DNA from: Leucoraja ocellata
Lineage: Eukaryota
Assembly: GCA_036785375.1 (NCBI GenBank)
Contig: JAWMAR010001278.1
Coordinates: 186,001 to 250,000, forward strand
Length of the DNA stretch: 64,000 nt
Direction of reading: 5' to 3'
Shown: positions 2,833 to 34,000 of the stretch, in pieces
Layout of the letters: each line of letters starts with the position of its first letter
Numbering within the stretch: position 1 is the stretch's first letter
Program-made: the position numbers and the translations under genes
The notes under the pieces: generated by a model
What the model was told of the DNA's origin: nothing
Database searches by the model: none
What the model saw: the letters and a program-made list of their open reading frames with translations, nothing else

Positions 2833-3483
2833 CAAATGTAACCATTCTCATTGTTCCAACGAAGTCGACAAAATCTTGTGGAGCAGCACCACGTCTGGGT
2901 GTGGTGCAATCCTTGAGGTCGTCATCAATATGGGCAATTTCAGATAACTAGCCTTTGCAGTTTGTATCAGAACTGGCCACATCATGTGACTGCAGCCAGT
3001 TCTGATGAAGGTCATTGATCTGAAAATACATTTTTCCGAAGACATTTGTACATGGATAAGAAAGGTCAGAGGGCTATGGGTGAAATATGGGCAATTAGGA
3101 TCAGCTTAGAGGAGGCATCTTGGTTAGCATGGACAAGTTGGGTCGAAGGGTCTGTTTCTACATGAGCGTGAAACATGAACTGTTTCTTTCTCCACAAGAT
3201 GCTGCCCGACTGGATGAGTATTTCAAGCATTTTCTGTCATTATTTCTTTGTTGTATTCTACTTAATGGCTGTCCAGACCCCGAGGTGTAGGTCATCCCCA
3301 GCTTACGGACACATTAAAGTACACATGAGCGAGTGTCTGGCAGATGTGGGATGGATTTACCGGCTGCTGCGGGGCGTCAGGCATCTTCTGCCGTGTGAGA
3401 ACTCTGTTCACGGCTGCATGTTCCGTTTGGGAACGGTTCCCAGGAAGGGAACCCTGCCGTAGCCGGGGGGAATGTCCTGCACC

Positions 3484-7622: not shown

Positions 7623-10600
7623 ATTCCTCTCACAGAACAGCGCTTCCTCATCATCCCTTCCGCAACACGGAACTCCTTCACCCCCTCCACCCACAGTGTA
7701 GCTCTCCCTCCTCACTCTCCCTAATACAATGCAGCATTCCCTCCTCACCACCTCTACCAAAGCACGGTTCTCCCTCCTCACCGCCCCAGGCGGGAACATA
7801 TGCATTCTCGCCCGATGGACAGACTGAGAGAGGACCAGAAAGAAGTCAGAGTTTTTGTTTTAGTTTAATCACAGATACAATGTGGAAACAGGAACCGTCC
7901 CCGCCGACCAGCGATCACCTTTACATTAGTTCTATCCTACACACTAGGGACAATTTACAGTGGCCAATTAATCTGTAAACCTGTCTGTCTATTGAATATG
8001 GGAGGAAACCAGAGCACCCGGAGAAAACACACACGGTCACAGGGAGAACGTGTCAACACAATACAGACAGCACCCATAGGCAGAATCTAACTTGGGTCCC
8101 TGGCGTTGTAAGGCAGCAACTCTACCGCTGTGCCACCATGCTGTCCTTGCGATCCCCCTGTCACAGGTTCAAGGAAGACTGAGCCACTAGGCCAAACCCG
8201 AGACCACCTGCAATGGTCAGGTCTGGACTGCTGGAAAGAAGCCTATACAAGGCTTCAACCTCAGGCTTATAGAGTGGCCTTGGCAAGCCTGAGGTGCCAG
8301 TGATTCTTCTGGCCCACAGACAACGACGGACTGTACCCACACACATACACACAGGCATAGACTGCCCGACAGGATAATCGAGAGACTGCAATCATCACTT
8401 CTTCAAGCCCAAAGGTTGAGCTGCCAGGAAGAAATCTGCACTGCCAGCACTGCTTATGGCAAAGGTGGACTGCAGAAAGAAGCCTGAGGTCGCCACAACT
8501 CCTCCTTTGAAGATCACAGAAATAAGATGTTGGGACAAGCCCGAGATCACCAGCATCTTGCCCAACAGCGCCAGAGACCCAGGTTCAATCCCGACTATAG
8601 GTGCTTGTCTGTACGGAGTTTGTACGTGTGTGTTTCCCCGAGATCTTATGTTTCCTCCCACACTCCAAAGAGGTACAGTTTGTTGGTTAATTGGCTTAGT
8701 ATAAATGTAAATTGTCCCCAGTGTGTGCTGCAAAGTTTCTGCGCTGTTTCTCTAAAGTAAACTAAAAACAATCAATGCTGTTAATGGTCTTGCCATTAAC
8801 TCTACACTCTCTCCTTGTGCCTTCATCCTCCCAAAGTGCGCACCTCACACTTGCTCGGATTAAACTCCGTCTGCCATTTCTCCGCCCATTTCTGCATCTG
8901 ATTTTCATCCCAACGTATCTTCCGACAGCTTACTCTCTGTCTGCAACGCCTCCACACTTGGTGTCGTCAGCAAACTCACTCAGCCACACAGTGGCGGACG
9001 GGGTCTAAAAATATTGGTTGTCAGGAGACAAAGGGGGCCCACCCACAACTACAATGCTATCATTTAATTTTCATAACGAATAAATAACATTTTCAAAAAA
9101 TACATATGGAAAAAAGGGTACAATTAAAATGTTTGTGGAAAAAATGTGTATTTCTTAGTAATTACAGTGTACATGTACTGTACATATTACTGGCAGTCGA
9201 TACCAAATGTCAATACAGAATGTTATAATTGAATTCTTTATTTACTTTTTTACATTAAGTAATTGGTTGATATTTTTAAATAGTTTACTGCACAATTTAC
9301 ACATTAACATAGTTCAAAAGCACAATAGAGCATTGCATGGTCCACTATATTAAGAGCAATTGTTTGTGTTCGCTGATGATTGTGCAAATCTGCCAATAAT
9401 TGCTTCTGCATCCAATTCATCTAACAATTCCTTTTCAATGGATAGCAACATGTATGATTCAAAATTCTCCTCAGACAGCAAATTTCTTAACCTTGTCTTT
9501 ATGATCTTTAGGTTTGAAAATGTCCTCTCACATTGGATTGAGTAACTGATAGTGTGCAGATGACTTTATAAAGTTCATAAAGGTTATCATATGCCTTGTT
9601 ATGAAGTCTGTTGGATGCCAGAATTGTTAGAACACCGATGGGCAAGTGCTGCAAATTTTACAATTGTTGCAACTGGAATCCATATTCTCACCATCATTAA
9701 GCAATAGTTTTTATACATCAAAGTTTGAAGCAAAAGAAAACAATTCCAATATTACTTGATCTTTGCTGATTTGTGGAAACAGCTTAATAATACCTTCCAA
9801 TGCTTCATCTTCAAGGCCCTTCTCTGCAATAGTTTTAAACTTTGCTGGGTCCAAGCAGGACAAATCTTTATACAACTGTTTGTATTGTAGAAAGCGTGAT
9901 TCTAGTGACTGGACAATGCGATCCATTATTGGGTTAAACACATTTACCCCAAAATCAGCGAGAGAATCTGAGGAATTTCTTTCATCATCAATAAGCTCAT
10001 CTGCCATTCTTTTCTTCTTCCTCTGCCTCTTAACTGGCAATGCTGTTTCCAATGCATCAATTTCCAATGTGTGATTTTCATCCATATTCATCTGTGAAAT
10101 TGTATTCAATTGTATTGTATTCAAATTTATTGTCATTGTCCCAATTTGGCATGTGTAATGACAGAATAAATCCTGTCATTACACATTTACAAATTCCAAA
10201 GCCTTGCTGTGAACATTATCAAATGTTCTTGTCTGTTCCTTCAAGTTTGTTGTAGCTGAATCTAGCAAACTCCATGCTGTAAAAATTTCTAAACCACTTG
10301 TCTGTAGATAACTTGACAACAGGGTTGTAGTTTCAAATATATACAAGTAAGTAAATGCTGTCAATATGGTTTCAAACTTTAGAAGACTTTGAAGTAAAAC
10401 ATTTGCTTCATGTTTTGTTTTTGCATCAAACTTTTCTGAATCTTGTATCATTGATAAGCATGTCAATAGATTTACGAAAGTACTGGCAGCGGCATCATCA
10501 AAACGTCCAAATATAGTTGTTGCTGCATTGGATTTTCCTGACCATCTGGTCTCACCAATTAGCTTTAATCGTTTCATTTTTTCTTGTCCTAGATGTTTTC

Positions 10601-10995
10601 CACCAACTTCTATCCATACAGCCATTCTCTTGTATGATGCTTTCATAAAAGTTGCTATATTCTGGAGCAAATTGAAAAAAGAAACTGCAGGCACACAACA
10701 TTTTGTTGTTTCAGTTATCACCAAATTCAAGACATGGGCATAGGACCACATATGAACATGTTGATCAGCCACATCAGCAATTTTACTTTGTAATCCATTA
10801 TACTGGCCATGGTAGCTTGCAGCGCCATCTGTGCTATCGGATAAACATTTTTGGGGGGCGATTTTAAGATGCTGTAATGTTTCAATCAATAGATCAAAAA
10901 GTCCCTGTCCTGTACCATCATTACTTGGCACAACTGAAGGTAGTCGCTCACAGATAATACCTTTAAGCACATACCGAATAATAATGCTACTGATC

Positions 10996-13900
10996 ACTGA
11001 TAATGTGTTCAGGAGCATCTATTGATGTATTTGTATCAATCACTGTGCTGGTGAAACCAGTGGCGACCAGGAATAGACTGGTTGACAACCAAGAATAGGG
11101 TGGTGACGACTGGAGAGACAGTGGACAGCTCGGAAAGACGGTAACCGGGGTGTTGCGGGTTGGCAGCCCAAACCGCATCCTCTGAGAGGAGGAGACCCAA
11201 ATCACGCTACAGAAAAACACATGGAAAAATACCCCCAGGGTGCCCGAAAGGGGGGGGAGGATGAGCACCTCTATTGGATGGATCAAAGGTTCACGACTAA
11301 TGGCAATGGACAACCGACTATGAGTATCAAATGCAGATGTGGTAAGGTTTGCAAGAACAGCCGAGGCCTGAAGATTCACCAGACCCGGATGAAGTGTTTG
11401 GATGGACAGGGAGTGTCACAACGCACAGGTATTTTACCTGGTGAGACGCAGGAGGAGCCAGGCCCGGAATCACCCCATAGAGCCCGAAGCCTCCAAGTGG
11501 CGCAACTAGTCGCTCGGAACTGTTCTCCGGAGAAGGTTCGAGTCAGATGGCCTCAGGCCTGCAAGACGGCAGTCTGGCATCAGTTCAACGAGGACGTCGA
11601 CAAGGTGCTGGAAGCGACTGCGAAGGGAGACGTGGACCAAAGGCTGCGGTCGATGACGACAATCATCATCAGCCTAGCTGTGGAAAGGTTTGGAGAAGTG
11701 GAGAAGAAGCCGTCCTGAACACCTTTCACCATGAACCAACGAGCAACGAAGATCCACAAGATCCGGCAGGAGCTGAAGTCCCTCAAGAAGCAATATGAAG
11801 GGGCCAGGGAAGAGCAACGTCCCCCCTTGGCTGAGCTGTGAACCATCCTGAGGAAGAAGCTGATGACCCTCCATAGGGCTGAGTGGCACCGAAGACGCCG
11901 AAGGAAAGAGCCGGGAAGCGAGCATCCTTCATAGCCAAGCCCTTCGGCTTCACCAAACAACTACTCGGGCAGAAGCGCAGTGGGAGTTTGGCTTGCCCTA
12001 AGGAGGAGATCGACCGGCACATCCAGACGACCTACAGTGACCCCATCAGGCAGCAGGAGCTGGGCCAATGTAACATCCTGATAAAACCACCTCCACCCAT
12101 CAAGGAGTTTGATAGTAGAGAGCCACTCCTGAAAGAGGTCCAGAACGTTGTGAAGAGAGCAAGAGCTGGCTCAGCCCGTGGCCCGAGCGGAGTCCCCTAC
12201 AAGGTCTACAATAACTGCCCCTTGTTACTGAAACTGCTGTGGAAGATCCTGAAAGACATCTGGAGGAGAGGAAAAGTGGCGCAGCAGTGGCGATTCGCTG
12301 AAGGAGTCTGGATCCCAAAGGAGGAAGATTCCTAAAAGATCGATCAGTTCAGAATCATCTCCTTGCTAAGTGTTGAAGGCAAGATTTTCTTCAGCATACA
12401 GCTCAGTGCAAAAGGGAGGCTTATCTGGAGTGCCGGGGTGTCTAGAGCACACGGGAGTGGTGACCCAGCTCATCAGAGAAGCCAGGGAGAACAAGGGTGA
12501 CCTGACAGTGCTCTGGCTTGACCTGGCCAACGCCTACGGCTCCATCCCGCACAAGCTGATCCAGACAGTCATGGCCAAGCATCATGTGCCGGGTTAAGTG
12601 GCAGATCTCATTCTGGACTATTACAACCAGTTCAGCATGAGAGTCTCATCAGGGTCAGTAACATCAGAGGGGCACAGATTGGAGGTTGGGATCATCACAG
12701 GCTGTACCATCTCTGTGATCCTTGTTGCCTTGGCGATGAACATGATCGTCAAGTCTGCTGAGACAGAGTGCCGGGGCCCTCGGACCAAGTCAGGAATGCG
12801 CCAACCACCAATCAGAGCCTTCATGGCCAACCACTGAGTCAGTGCCAGGAGGCAGGTGGATCCTGCAGGGGTTGGGGAAACTGATTGGATGGGCAAGGAT
12901 GAGGTTTAAGCCAGGAAAATCAAGGTCACTGGTGCTGAAGAAGGGCAAAGTCATGGACAGGTTCCGCTTCAACATCGAAGGGACACCAATCCCAACTGTC
13001 TCCGAAAGGCCCGTGAAGAGTCTTGGCAAGGTGTTTAACAGCAGCCTGAAGGATACAGCATCTGTCCAGGCAACCTGTCAGGAGCTGGAGAGCTGGTTGA
13101 GAGCAGTGGACCGGTCGGGGCTTCCCGGCAAGATCAAGGCATGGATTTACCAGCATGGTATCCTGCCAAGGATACTCTGGCCACTGCTTGTCTACGAATT
13201 CCCAATATCCATCGTAGAGAGATTGGAGAGGAAAGTCAGCAGCTTTCTCAGAAGGTGGCTGGGACTGCCCGGGAGCCTTAGCAACATCTCCCTTTACGGA
13301 AATAACACCAACCTCCAGCTGCCCCTGAAGTCCCTGGAGGAGGAGTTCAAGGTGACTCGGGCCAGAGAGGTGATGCTGTACAGGGACTCCAGCGACCCCA
13401 AGGTGGCTCAAGCAGGGGTGGAGATGAAAACTGGGAGGAAGTGGAGAGCCGGCGAAGTCGTGCTGCAAGCAGAGTCCCAAATACGCCACAGAGTTCTGGT
13501 GGGAGCAGTGACTCGGGGAAGAGCAGGCCTGGGAATCTTCCCATCTCCCCAGTTTGACAAGGCCAAGGGGAAGGAGAGGCGCAGGCTGGTCCAGGAGGAA
13601 GTGAGGGCAGTGGTGGAGGAGGAGAGGTGTACCAGAGCAGTAGGATTGAGGCAGCAGGGAGCCTGGACAAGGTGGGAGCAGGCCATGGACCGAAAAGTCA
13701 CATGGACTGAGCTCTGGCAGGCTGAACCACAGCGCATCAAGTTCCTGGTCCAGGCAGTGTATGATGTCCTGCCCAGCCCATCGAACCTCTTCATCTGGGG
13801 CAAAGCGGAATCTCCAGATTGCCCGCAATGCTCAGGCAAGGGGACGTTGGAACACATCTCGAGCTGTTGCCAAAGGCTGTTGCCCAATCGCTCTACAAAG

Positions 13901-14176
13901 CCTTGAGTGCACTGGGCATAAACGGAGTGGCAAGGAGAAGGGCCATCAAGAACACCACAGAGGCAGCGGAGAAGGCCTCGAGATGGCTCTGGATCAGGAG
14001 AGGAAGACAATGGGGAGGAGCGAATGCCACCTGAACACAAGTCGTGGTCTGATCAACCACGGCTGGGTCGCCTGGGTGAGGGTGTCTGATGTTGAAAGAC
14101 CTGAAACGCCCAATGACCCCAGGTTACATCACTGATGATGTGTTCAGGAGCATCTATCGATGTATTTGTATCAATC
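10996..14176 (+). mobile_element. Hero/R2-like RLE-class non-LTR retrotransposon, near full length, inactivated
   Basis: Single broken ORF from 11221: N-terminal CRCGKVCKNSRGLKIHQ finger; RT motifs GPSGVPY, WIPKEE, VQKGG..GCLEH, WLDLANAYGS, GIITGCTISV; CPQC..TLEH knuckle; ends AAEKASRWLWIRR. Stops and internal deletions are present. Confidence 0.8.
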
Positions 14177-14769
14177 GATGGATGAATTTTATCTTGTGTT
14201 GAATCAACCAATAGAATAATATTGTGCTTGAGAAACTTCATGACTAATTCTTTCTTGTATCATATTCTTCATAATTTTGATTAACATGTTTATAGTAGTT
14301 TTACTCAGGTATGTAACAAGTCCACCACGGCCTTTACTTTGACCCTTTCCTTGTTGCTCTAATCATTTGATTCTTTGTTTAGACTTGATTTGCACTGCAG
14401 AAACATGAGCTGCCATAATGGGGTTATATTTTACCATCAACTACACTGTAGCTAAAAAATTGCCTTGATTCTGAACCTCATTATCTAGAATGTAGGCCGA
14501 TTCATTTCTGTGACCTCGAAAAGGAAGTGCTTGCTTGCCTAACATCTTCATGATGTCTATAATCCTCATGACAATACTTCTCTGCTTCAATACTTCTTCT
14601 TTCCTTTTAATTAGTGATGCTGCTGCAAACAAATTATCTAAGGTGGCATCATTAACCACATTGATAGATTGCGGAGTATTTCTGACATAGGTTGTTGTCG
14701 ATTTATGTAAATGAGATCATTACCATGCATAACTAGTAATTTACGTTTGAATTCTCATGTAGTTGAACT

Positions 14770-31070: not shown

Positions 31071-34000
31071 GTACCATCAGCAGCAACTCAGAAGTGTTTA
31101 CGGGGAGTGATGCATTGGGGGAGGGGCGGTGCGGAGGGAGTGATGCCCTGGGGGAGGGGCGGTGAGGAGGGAGTGATGCACTGGGGGAGGGGCGGTGAGG
31201 AGGGAGTGATGCACTGGGGGAGGGGCGGTGAGGAGGGAGACTCTACCACTACGCCACCATGCTGCTCTTCTACGCTCTGTTCACACCGGGTCCACAGCGC
31301 AGGATAAACGGTGTGGGAAGTCCAGTGAACTGACAGGGTGTTCACTGCTAAAGATTGTTCCTTCTCTCCTCAGCCGTGATGTCGGGAGAGTGGAGTGCGT
31401 GGTATCCCGAAGCCGTGACAGCGCAGAATGGTTTGTGTGCACGGATTCCGTGTAACTACTCGTACCCGTCGAATCTGAACAGTAAACCACGGACTGGAAT
31501 CTGGTTTAACAGTGGGTCGCTCAATAATCCTGCAGACTTCCACTCCGGGAATCCCAGTCTAGAATCAACAAAGTTACAGCATCGGACCCGGCTGTCAGGA
31601 GACCTGATAGACAACGACTGTTCCCTGGTGATAGACAACGTCACGCCGCAAGATGAAGGTCGTTATTTTTTCAGAGTTGAATTCGGAGGGGAAAATAATT
31701 ACAGCTTCCACACTGTAACACAGCTCAGTGTTAGTGGTAAGTGCTCTGTATAATTCACTCATTCATTCAACAGTTTCTCCCAGCTGTTATCAGGCAACTG
31801 AACCAACCTACCACAACCAGAGAGCAGTGTTGAACTCCTGTTGACCTCACTGGTGACCCATCGGACTATCCTTGATTGGACTTTGCTGGCTTTACCTTGC
31901 ACTAAACGTTATTCCCTTATCATGTATCCATACACTGCAAATGGCTCGATTGCAATCATGTATAGTCTTTCTGCTGAGGCAGATTGTAGTTCAGGACCGC
32001 TCCCTGGTTGTGGTAGAATGATTCAGTTGCCTGATAACAGCTGGGAAGAAACTGTCCCTGAATCTGGAGGTGTGCGTTTTCACACTTCTATAACTAGTAA
32101 AAACATCTTTGCTCGTGTGGGACTGGGATTTCAATGTGAACCGATGTATCCAGTGATATTTAACTAACAGTATTTGTTTTTCTGTGTGTTAGATTTCACG
32201 GATAAACCCACGATATTCCCTGCTGAATTGGTGGCAGGAAAGCCTGTGGACATGACCTGCTTCTTCACCACCACGTGTGATGGACCGGCACCCACCTTAA
32301 CCTGGGTCACCCCCGCTGATGAACCACCGTCAACCTCACACAGCGTAACTCAGAAGGGTGACACTCTGACATATACTTCTGTTCTGTCCCTGACCCCAGC
32401 GCTCAAACATCACGGACAAAACCTCACGTGCAGAGTCACATACCCAACTGTGTCATCGGAGCAGACCCTCACACTGACTGTGGAATGTAAGTACGGAGAT
32501 CGTTTATTGTGCAGGAACATCAATAATCTATTAGCAGTGCTGGTATATAAGGTCATAGACGATAGGTGCAGAATTAGGCCATTCAGCCCATCAACTCTAC
32601 TCTGCCATTCAATCATGGCTGATCAATCTCTCTCTCCTAACCCCTTTCGTCTGCCTTCTCCCCATATCTTCTGACCCCTGCATTAATCAAATCAAAAGCT
32701 GGAGAAACTCAGCAGCATATCAGGAGAGAAGGAATGGGTGATGTTTCGGGTCGAGAGCCTTCTTCAGACTGAAAGTTACAGGAAAGGGAAACAAGAGATA
32801 TAGACGATGATGTGGAGTGATGTATGACCTACCTGATCTCCTGGTTGCTAAACACATTAATTCTCCATTCCCATTCCCACACTGAACTTTCTGTCCTCGG
32901 ACACCACTATTGTCAGAGTGAGGTTAAATGCAAATTGGAGGATCAGCATCTCATATTTTGCTTGGGCAGTTTACAGCCCAGTGGTATGTATATTGATTTC
33001 TCTAACTTCAGGTAGCCCCGGCATTCCCTCTCTCTCCATCCCTCCCCCACCCAAGTCTCATCAGCTTCTTGTTCTCACCCAACAAACAGCTAACAACGGC
33101 CTGTTCCCTTTATCATCGTTAACTTTTTGCATATCTTTCATTCTTTGTTCTATATGTCCCTACACCATCGTCTATATCTCTCATTTCCCTAAACATAGAA
33201 CTAGTGTGTGAATGTGTGATCGATGGTTGGCGCGGACTCCGTGGGCTGAAGGGCCTATTTCCACAGTGTATCTCTACAGTCTGAAGACTAAAGTCTTTTA
33301 CAAGGATCAACGAAAGTGCCGCAAAACTGGTTGCTGAATGTTATCTGTTTGCAGACGCCCCCCAGAATCTCTCAATCACTTCCCCCGACAATGTGAACAA
33401 TTCCTGGGTCAGTATAAAGGAAGGAAACTCTGCAGCGATCCTCAGCTCCCTCCAGAGTTTCCCAGCGTCTAACCTGATGTGGAGACATCGGTGTCACACT
33501 GAACACAACATGTTCCAGCAACGAGCTGTGGATGGACATAGACATAACCATAGAAAATAGGTGCAGGAGGAGGCCATTCGCCCCTTCGAGCCAGCACCAC
33601 CATTCATTGTGATCATGGCTGATCGTCCCCCATCAATAACCCGTGCCTGTCTTCACCCCATATCCCTTGATTCCACTAGCCCCAAGAGCTCTATCTAACT
33701 CTCTTAAATCCATCCAGTGACTTGGCCTCCACTTCCCTCTGTGGCAGGGAATTCCACAAATTCACAACTCTCTGGGTGAAAACGTTTTTTCTCACCTCAG
33801 TCTTAAATGGCTTCCCCTTTGTTCTAAGACTATGGCCCCTGGTTCTGGACTCGCCCAACATTGGGAATATTTTTCGTACATCTACCTTGTCCAGTCCTTT
33901 TATGATTTTATACGTTTCTATAACATATCCCCTCATCCTTCTAAACTCCGGTAAATACAAGCCTAGTCTTTTCAATTCCCTCAGCTGACAGGGAAGGACG

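Follow-up and report, generated by a model that had tools for sequence, protein, structure and literature searches.

Results

The insertion and its 5' tag

The stretch of DNA analysed here (the window) comprises 64,000 nucleotides (nt) of Leucoraja ocellata (assembly GCA_036785375.1, contig JAWMAR010001278.1, positions 186,001 to 250,000 of the forward strand). It contains a decayed HERO-clade retrotransposon, an element without long terminal repeats (LTRs) that belongs to the restriction-like endonuclease (RLE) class, inserted into a hAT-like transposase remnant. A 49-bp copy of the element's own 3' end, hereafter the tag, directly precedes its 5' end, and its 3' untranslated region (UTR) harbors a hammerhead-like RNA. 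The features in window coordinates, including the one open reading frame (ORF) and its reverse transcriptase (RT), are as follows.

9711..10995, minus strand: hAT-like transposase remnant, 3' part (ORFs; contiguous with 14174 onward in locus L173)
10993..11041, plus strand: 5' tag, a copy of the element's last 49 nt (47/49 match; absent at empty sites)
11042..14176, plus strand: body of the HERO-clade RLE non-LTR retrotransposon, decayed (RVT_1 in copy L124; R2 proteins are the nearest solved relatives)
11057..11150, plus strand: 5' UTR motif of repeated, hairpin-like TGAC..GAA(T)AG units (by inspection; seen in distant relatives)
11107..14034, plus strand: remnant of the single ORF, with an N-terminal zinc-finger-like motif, RT and CCHC knuckle, broken by stops and frameshifts
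13882..13885, plus strand: site of a 455-nt deletion private to the window copy, which takes out the PD-(D/E)xK endonuclease core kept in siblings
14030..14148, plus strand: predicted hammerhead-like RNA (descriptor, covariation, alignment)
14128..14176, plus strand: the 49 nt at the element's 3' terminus, the tag's template (47/49 match)
14174..14716, minus strand: hAT-like transposase remnant, 5' part (ORFs; weak DUF4371 match, E 0.042; contiguity in L173)

The same flank is found in 27 of the 30 loci fetched with a 5' query, which are thus siblings of the window insertion, and a stretch about 85 kb upstream on the same contig aligns collinearly with about 38 kb of the window. The window insertion is a single event that was later multiplied inside a repeat of about 80 kb. 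Direct comparison of 10993–11041 with 14128–14176 gave 47 identities over 49 positions, and both left junctions read ATCACTG, each 49-mer opening with these letters and ACTG following the left copy; the preliminary description had given both points correctly. The mismatch at 11002 is confined to the window copy (1 of 27 sibling loci) and that at 11023 occurs in all 27.

A pattern for the uninterrupted site (...GCTAAACTGATC-GATGGATG) matched three loci and a control pattern none, and in L173 the left flank is directly joined to the right flank across the insertion site. These empty sites lack the 46 bp and have ATC alone in common with the tag; thus, the 49-mer repeat is not host DNA. This bears out the earlier proposals, made from the window only, that the 49-mer derives from the 3' end of the element itself and is not a target-site duplication, that uninterrupted hAT copies lack the 46 bp and that only ATC is shared with the target. 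The rejoining of the hAT frame on which they were based holds in part. The remnant is contiguous in L173; compared with the empty sites the window lacks 2 bp (AA) 6 bp left of the junction, and this loss causes the frame break at 'Q.S' in that reading. The hAT label itself is weakly backed by a single Pfam match (DUF4371, E 0.042), and we otherwise take the interrupted transposon to be a hAT from its motifs.

Tags throughout the family

An anchor internal to the 5' UTR and blind to upstream sequence had 81 exact matches, of which 24 were dropped by contig and place as siblings of the window event, which were counted as one insertion. The 57 loci fetched were merged by common flanks into 39 insertions; four lack the first 14–27 nt and 35 are start-intact. 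The family's own 3' end (29–1,915 nt) precedes 33 of these 35, while one has 3 nt and one none. A joint pattern (59 matches, control 0) supplied 10 further loci, and the wider set consists of 42 insertions, 7 of them joint-selected. Tags of 16–1,915 nt are present in 40 of the 42 independent insertions. The element's 3' terminus therefore stands ahead of its 5' end regularly and family-wide, and the possibility of a one-off event, which the preliminary description had left standing, is refuted.

The median tag of the 42 insertions is 90 nt. At least 147 nt are present in 18, more than 90 nt in 21, and no tag starts at 88–92 nt. Eleven tags, the window's among them, measure 44–59 nt; this cluster makes up 11 of the 21 tags of 21–146 nt (p 1.4e-5, with the bin picked after inspection) and its starts map to the CUGAUGA block and stem I of the fold described below. 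Three independent tags with different flanks start at reference 3257–3258, and five tags are longer. Solo copies (26 independent from 30 loci, measurable to about 1,500 nt, the flank fetched) have a median length of 700 nt, and tags are far shorter (Mann-Whitney p 1.5e-6). Terminal repeats of fixed length or fixed ends, as in an LTR element, are absent: tags range from 0 to 1,915 nt and their starts are scattered. The repeat is a partial tandem and not an LTR, and there is nothing special about its length of 49 bp in the window.

The joint, the 3' ends and tag-element linkage

None of 40 tag-element joints contains added letters; the register is kept in 37 and 1–4 nt are deleted in three. At 27 two-ended loci, a tag variant outside CpG sites was seen again in the 3' end of its own insertion in 31 of 107 cases, against 240 of 3,532 for the 3' ends of other insertions. 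A 6–9-bp duplication surrounds tag plus element in 3 of 22 insertions, and none is clear in the rest. Element-internal sequence follows none of 30 unselected 3' ends, and among 100 listed 3' ends four are followed by element sequence, all resuming at position 1 (by eye). The linkage, the joint duplications and the lack of 3'-end-to-internal joints in the 30 indicate that tag and element arrive together.

Independent 3' ends read GTATCA followed by 0–6 letters of microhomology. An A follows ATC in 10 of 12 loci and the letters after ATCA are background-like (by eye). Read-through priming beyond ATC was considered and dropped, as a poly(A) tail predicts the same excess of A. The extreme 3' end is duplicated over 22 nt at C23:1937809 and C52:8407765 (two of the 100 listed 3' ends, by eye), as from re-priming at an internal ATC.

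The exact joint is also found in contigs from runs of four other organisms. In a metagenome set consisting of the best 80 of 269 loci (40–65% identity in the endonuclease), 11 of the 49 loci with the motif and enough downstream DNA run into the conserved 5' UTR motif 73–106 nt after CUGAnGA, and tail sequence lies upstream in all four loci with the 5' UTR motif before the ORF (a few letters in L274). These short-read assemblies collapse repeats and show the joint rather than the copy structure.

A hammerhead-like RNA in the 3' UTR

The predicted RNA is composed of the following parts, all on the plus strand.

14030..14039: P0, 5' strand
14040..14064: hairpin
14065..14069: stem II, 5' strand
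14070..14076: helix X
14080..14092: site block
14098..14111: GAAA block
14118..14124: X'
14126..14138: CUGAUGA block
14139..14148: P0, 3' strand

From 5' to 3' the order is P0 5' strand, hairpin, stem II 5' strand, helix X, stem III-NUH-stem I, a short linker, stem II 3'-GAAA-stem III, X', stem I'-CUGAnGA and P0 3' strand. The full hammerhead core is kept in the block order site-GAAA-CUGAnGA, and the predicted cut falls after C14086, 90 nt before the element's 3' end. The window tag contains just the CUGAUGA block and the P0 3' strand, its first 3 nt, ATC, being common to the target.

A descriptor made of the core letters and stems I and III matched 55 of 81 sequences and 51 of the 70 that are informative (at least 150 nt after the ORF match), compared with 1 of 1,500 shuffles; it matched none of 81 reverse strands and none of 80 stretches of the ORF upstream. 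Twenty-five representatives with less than 80% core identity were compared. These descriptor-selected sequences all have CUGAnGA, GAAA and NUH with A15.1-U16.1. Their triplets are GTC (10), GTT (9), GTA (3) and ATA (3), with GAAAY changing to match (letters that the descriptor requires), and N7 is T in 18, C in four, G in two and A in one. In a MAFFT alignment blind to structure, all stems covary: 87.7% of 351 cells pair, against 67.8% when shuffled and 30–46% with slid partners, both sides change in 13 of 15 pairs, and the covariation score was reached in none of 500 shuffles, a control that allows only partly for the relatedness of the representatives. Stem II and P0 were found by optimisation, and the same optimisation was run across families as a control; 17 of 25 own pairs score at least 15 of 16, compared with 20 of 600 cross-family pairs.

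The 5' strand of stem II lies upstream of the site block in 24 of 25 representatives, and a contiguous partner after CUGAnGA forms its first pair in only 5. The direct link of 1–2 nt between A9 and stem II of hammerheads is absent, with two helices inserted. Helix X (4–9 bp) is present in 25 of 25, and a kink-turn consensus follows stem III and precedes X in 11 of 25 (slid control 0 of 25). By its sequence conservation, then, the 3' UTR tail is a conserved, rearranged hammerhead-like fold for which self-cutting is predicted. The preliminary description had overlooked it.

An Rfam search of the whole unit returned seven chance matches and no ribozyme. A type-I hammerhead spanning the head-to-tail joint was tried and rejected, as its stem I fails to form (by eye). 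A second HERO subfamily in the same genome has CUGAGGA (N7 = G) and an altered base before stem I.

Anatomy and affiliation of the element

The full unit measures 3,639 nt in sibling L158. Copy L124 has a frame of 948 amino acids with an RVT_1 match (E 4.5e-17) followed by a CCHC knuckle and a PD-(D/E)xK endonuclease whose motif is intact (RPDI..ELTVPWE..K..KY), so that the HERO clade trait of one ORF with RT, then CCHC and endonuclease, is present, and the best relatives of solved structure are R2 proteins. Judging from its stops, its frameshifts and the deleted endonuclease core, the window copy is dead. The RT region shows 72% identity and the endonuclease 57% identity to Tetraodon AAN12398.1, and identity to Takifugu BAC82598.1 is 64%; AAN12398.1 clusters with BAC82599.1, and the placement in HERO is by pairwise identity. 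We take AAN12398.1 and BAC82599.1 to be Zebulon and HEROTn, and BAC82598.1 to be HEROFr. The flanks of the 100 listed 3' ends and of the 42 insertions are unrelated beyond 0–6 letters, and there is no specific target.

The TGAC-NN-stem-GAA(T)AG-stem units of the 5' UTR are recognisable down to 40–55% protein identity (L208, L221, L226, L227, L229 and others). They have no Rfam match and, as far as their sequence suggests, could act as an internal promoter or as RNA bound by protein. Internally deleted copies with about 500–580 nt of 5' and 380–760 nt of 3' sequence (L094, L098, L099, L101, L108, L111, L128, L193, L195) include several with breakpoints at reference 3238–3264, where the three tags at 3257–3258 also start; an RT pause site or non-autonomous derivatives are possibly responsible. 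No relative of the element was found in the viral contigs searched. Two short contigs in bacterial genome records (L284, L285) have HERO-like endonuclease pieces, are probably animal contamination and were left out of the analysis.

The repeat carrying the insertion

The unit of about 80–85 kb around the hAT-HERO insertion occurs in at least 27 repeats, spread over a few contigs. It includes exons for V-set and C2-set immunoglobulin domains (window 31352–31750 and 32168–32671, plus strand) and is likely a recently expanded cluster of immunoglobulin-superfamily receptors that has carried the insertion along. Six siblings (L002, L008, L009, L012, L013, L025) carry, in inverted orientation, 65 bp of the hAT flank (window 10711–10775) within the HERO 5' region at about 11257–11261, a marker for the order of duplication. 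Of the 27 siblings, the window copy alone has a 67-bp insertion in the hAT remnant (window 10101–10167).

Discussion

Insertions of this family consist of a variable 3' piece followed by the full unit, with one fixed joint between them. We favor, at slightly better than even odds, the view that the tag represents a brief second lap in a partial head-to-tail insertion, likely made by RT travelling round a circular RNA of the unit, with the circle predicted to arise through cleavage by the permuted hammerhead. A parent with a tag of at least 147 nt would carry two ribozymes. Both would cleave its read-through RNA, each at a point 90 nt ahead of a 3' end, and the two cuts would release a unit-length, permuted RNA containing the joint, the cut ends of which would be ligated or else bridged by RT. 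Target-primed reverse transcription would then begin internally at the GTATCA(ATC) end, copy 3,639 nt, pass the joint and soon stall in the second lap as it displaces the cDNA of its first lap. With a tag of 49 nt, the window copy would be unable to give a new circle, besides being dead.

The position of the predicted cut bears directly on this model. Since tags cross the cut and 3' ends lie about 90 nt past it, an active ribozyme fits only if the cut ends are rejoined; a linear RNA cut at the site would end insertions there or stop tags at 90 nt, and neither is seen. A circle would explain why the joint is fixed, how tags are regenerated, why the second lap is short and why the core is conserved. 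The tandem or circular RNA template named among the causes in the preliminary description is thus the likely one, given the exact joint and the tag counts, and the circle itself is what we infer. Whether the same holds for the clade seems to us an evenly balanced question: HERO-clade long interspersed nuclear elements (LINEs) may replicate via ribozyme-made circular RNA, using a split-core, doubly pseudoknotted 3' UTR hammerhead, such that only second laps containing the whole ribozyme would breed.

Several observations weigh against the circular template. Copies that start at the predicted cut show no pile-up in 59 rows, copies ending there are not clear in any of 52 rows, and small indels are no more frequent at the cut (about 15 of 52 rows) than at a control position (about 25 of 72, by eye); small duplications reach the cut in just two cases, a number too low to be informative, and L103 alone has an internal deletion ending within a base or two of it. 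Two helices are inserted between A9 and G10.1, and because of this split core the RNA may lack activity. Energy minimisation of the window motif gives another, unknotted structure, obtained with a program that does not treat pseudoknots, and the descriptor misses 19 of the 70 informative relatives, some on individual decayed letters and others altogether. None of the 42 insertions has two full laps. Moreover, the insertion's own 3' end lacks 76 of the 107 tag variants, and the linkage of tags to their own 3' end is equally expected from a young linear parent.

Such a linear parent is central to the rival that survives best, which we regard as possible, with perhaps one chance in a few. An uncut transcript of a tandem parent, begun in its upstream tail or flank as in HeT-A/TART, would be reverse transcribed, and the fold would bind protein or cut unused RNAs. 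Linear read-through would give the exact joint and variable tags without unobserved chemistry and fits the missing ends and scars at the cut site, and the three independent tags at reference 3257–3258 are what a fixed start would produce. These three have different flanks, however, and so no carried-over flank, and five tags are longer. A daughter's tag could also be no longer than its parent's, so that tags would erode unless long tandem masters existed, and none is seen among the 42 insertions, the longest tag being 1,915 nt. Furthermore, the catalytic letters are invariant in the 25 representatives while N7 and the stems vary, as catalysis predicts.

An end-to-end template jump, in which RT at the 5' end of a linear unit RNA leaps to the 3' terminus of that RNA or of a different one, appears unlikely to us. 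The R2 RT does jump templates (PMC8857657), and jumping would regenerate the tag in each cycle; the linkage to the own 3' end suits a jump in cis. The same source ties such jumps to non-templated addition, whereas the 40 joints contain no added letters and the first-strand 3' junctions vary by 0–6 letters, which disfavors the jump that the preliminary description had listed; a seamless joint would still be possible if the added letters paired with the acceptor. Near-perfect efficiency would be demanded by 33 of 35 completed copies, and the conserved hammerhead core would be left unexplained.

Insertion of new copies at the 3' junctions of older, 5'-truncated copies, another suggestion of the preliminary description, is very improbable and unsupported: it would yield a truncated piece followed by an element, and a 22-nt terminal duplication does occur at two of the 100 listed 3' ends, yet new copies are mostly 5'-truncated and the 30 unselected 3' ends never run into element-internal sequence, the four continuations among the 100 all resume at position 1, and tags have variants in common with their own 3' end and fall far below solo copies in length. 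An ordinary 49-bp target-site duplication or a one-off accident has next to no chance of being right, for although near-identical direct repeats bracket the insertion, the 46 bp are missing from the empty sites, all family copies end in the same letters and 40 of 42 insertions are tagged.

The template of LINEs is assumed to be a linear RNA, with copying ending at or before its 5' end. If the circular template is real, an R2-group clade that laps it would overturn this view for an ancient LINE branch and would represent convergence with Penelope elements, an RLE retrotransposon with a Penelope-like life cycle having spread across animals. It would likewise add a new hammerhead architecture, since helices between A9 and stem II widen the known fold. 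The circular-template idea becomes testable in an element with one ORF, an RNA of 120 nt and one predicted bond. The findings also bear on the annotation of HERO elements, that is, on their true ends and on false calls of LTRs or target-site duplications, and on R2-group proteins now under screening as gene-insertion tools.

Comparison with known systems

Zebulon, the pufferfish relative, was reportedly described as a partial tandem (by Bouneau et al., in 2003), and the partial-tandem anatomy should therefore be taken as already known. The statement in the preliminary description that an LTR-like terminal redundancy is not expected for an RLE element was in this light overstated; its LTR-like part fails on tags of 16–1,915 nt. 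The single-ORF layout and lack of a specific target found here are those of the HERO clade and of Zebulon from Tetraodon. Two reports describe the clade as having one ORF with RT, CCHC and PD-(D/E)xK endonuclease and no specific target (PMC3636483, PMC4640811). What the present analysis contributes beyond this is a count of the tag rule over 42 insertions and its connection with a 3' UTR fold that is conserved. In the open literature, subscription papers, Repbase Reports and the supplements of PMC10085705 (which list further SGC variants and may include this motif) aside, nothing was found that connects HERO with a hammerhead or with circular RNA, and the accessible parts of PMC2861651, PMC2684134, PMC7650587 and PMC3088659 contain nothing on mechanism.

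The nearest structural parallels are the type-SGC/CSG non-circularly permuted hammerheads of Eckert et al. 2023, in which the same block order self-cleaves in vitro (PMC10085705). The motif described here has in common with type SGC the site-GAAA-CUGAnGA order, a short linker between stems I and II, an extra helix (X here) joining the far sides of the stems and an invariant core. It differs in that block C is interrupted, the 5' strand of stem II lies upstream of the site block and two helices stand between A9 and G10.1, an interruption assumed to be impossible in PMC10085705; a helix inserted after A9 is likewise not described in the accessible part of PMC3088659. By analogy the motif may work like type SGC, and we do not file it as such. 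Its host is an autonomous animal retrotransposon, and the words 'reverse transcriptase' do not occur in the main text of PMC10085705.

For Penelope elements a circular RNA template copied more than once round has been proposed (PMC4209133), and the same circle model has been put forward for retrozymes (PMC7761336). Like these systems, the present family combines a hammerhead in the repeated end with partial head-to-tail insertions and an exact joint. The known examples have a GIY-YIG Penelope RT or are non-coding, with type I or III hammerheads (PMC4209133, PMC7761336), whereas ours is an RLE LINE with an R2-like RT and a doubly pseudoknotted motif. R2 itself has an HDV-like ribozyme at its 5' end that frees linear RNA from rRNA (PMC7761336, PMC13580325). 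Like R2, the family has a related RT and endonuclease and a ribozyme, here predicted, that would process a read-through transcript; unlike that of R2, this ribozyme would be hammerhead-like, lies in the 3' UTR and would remove the priming end unless the RNA were rejoined.

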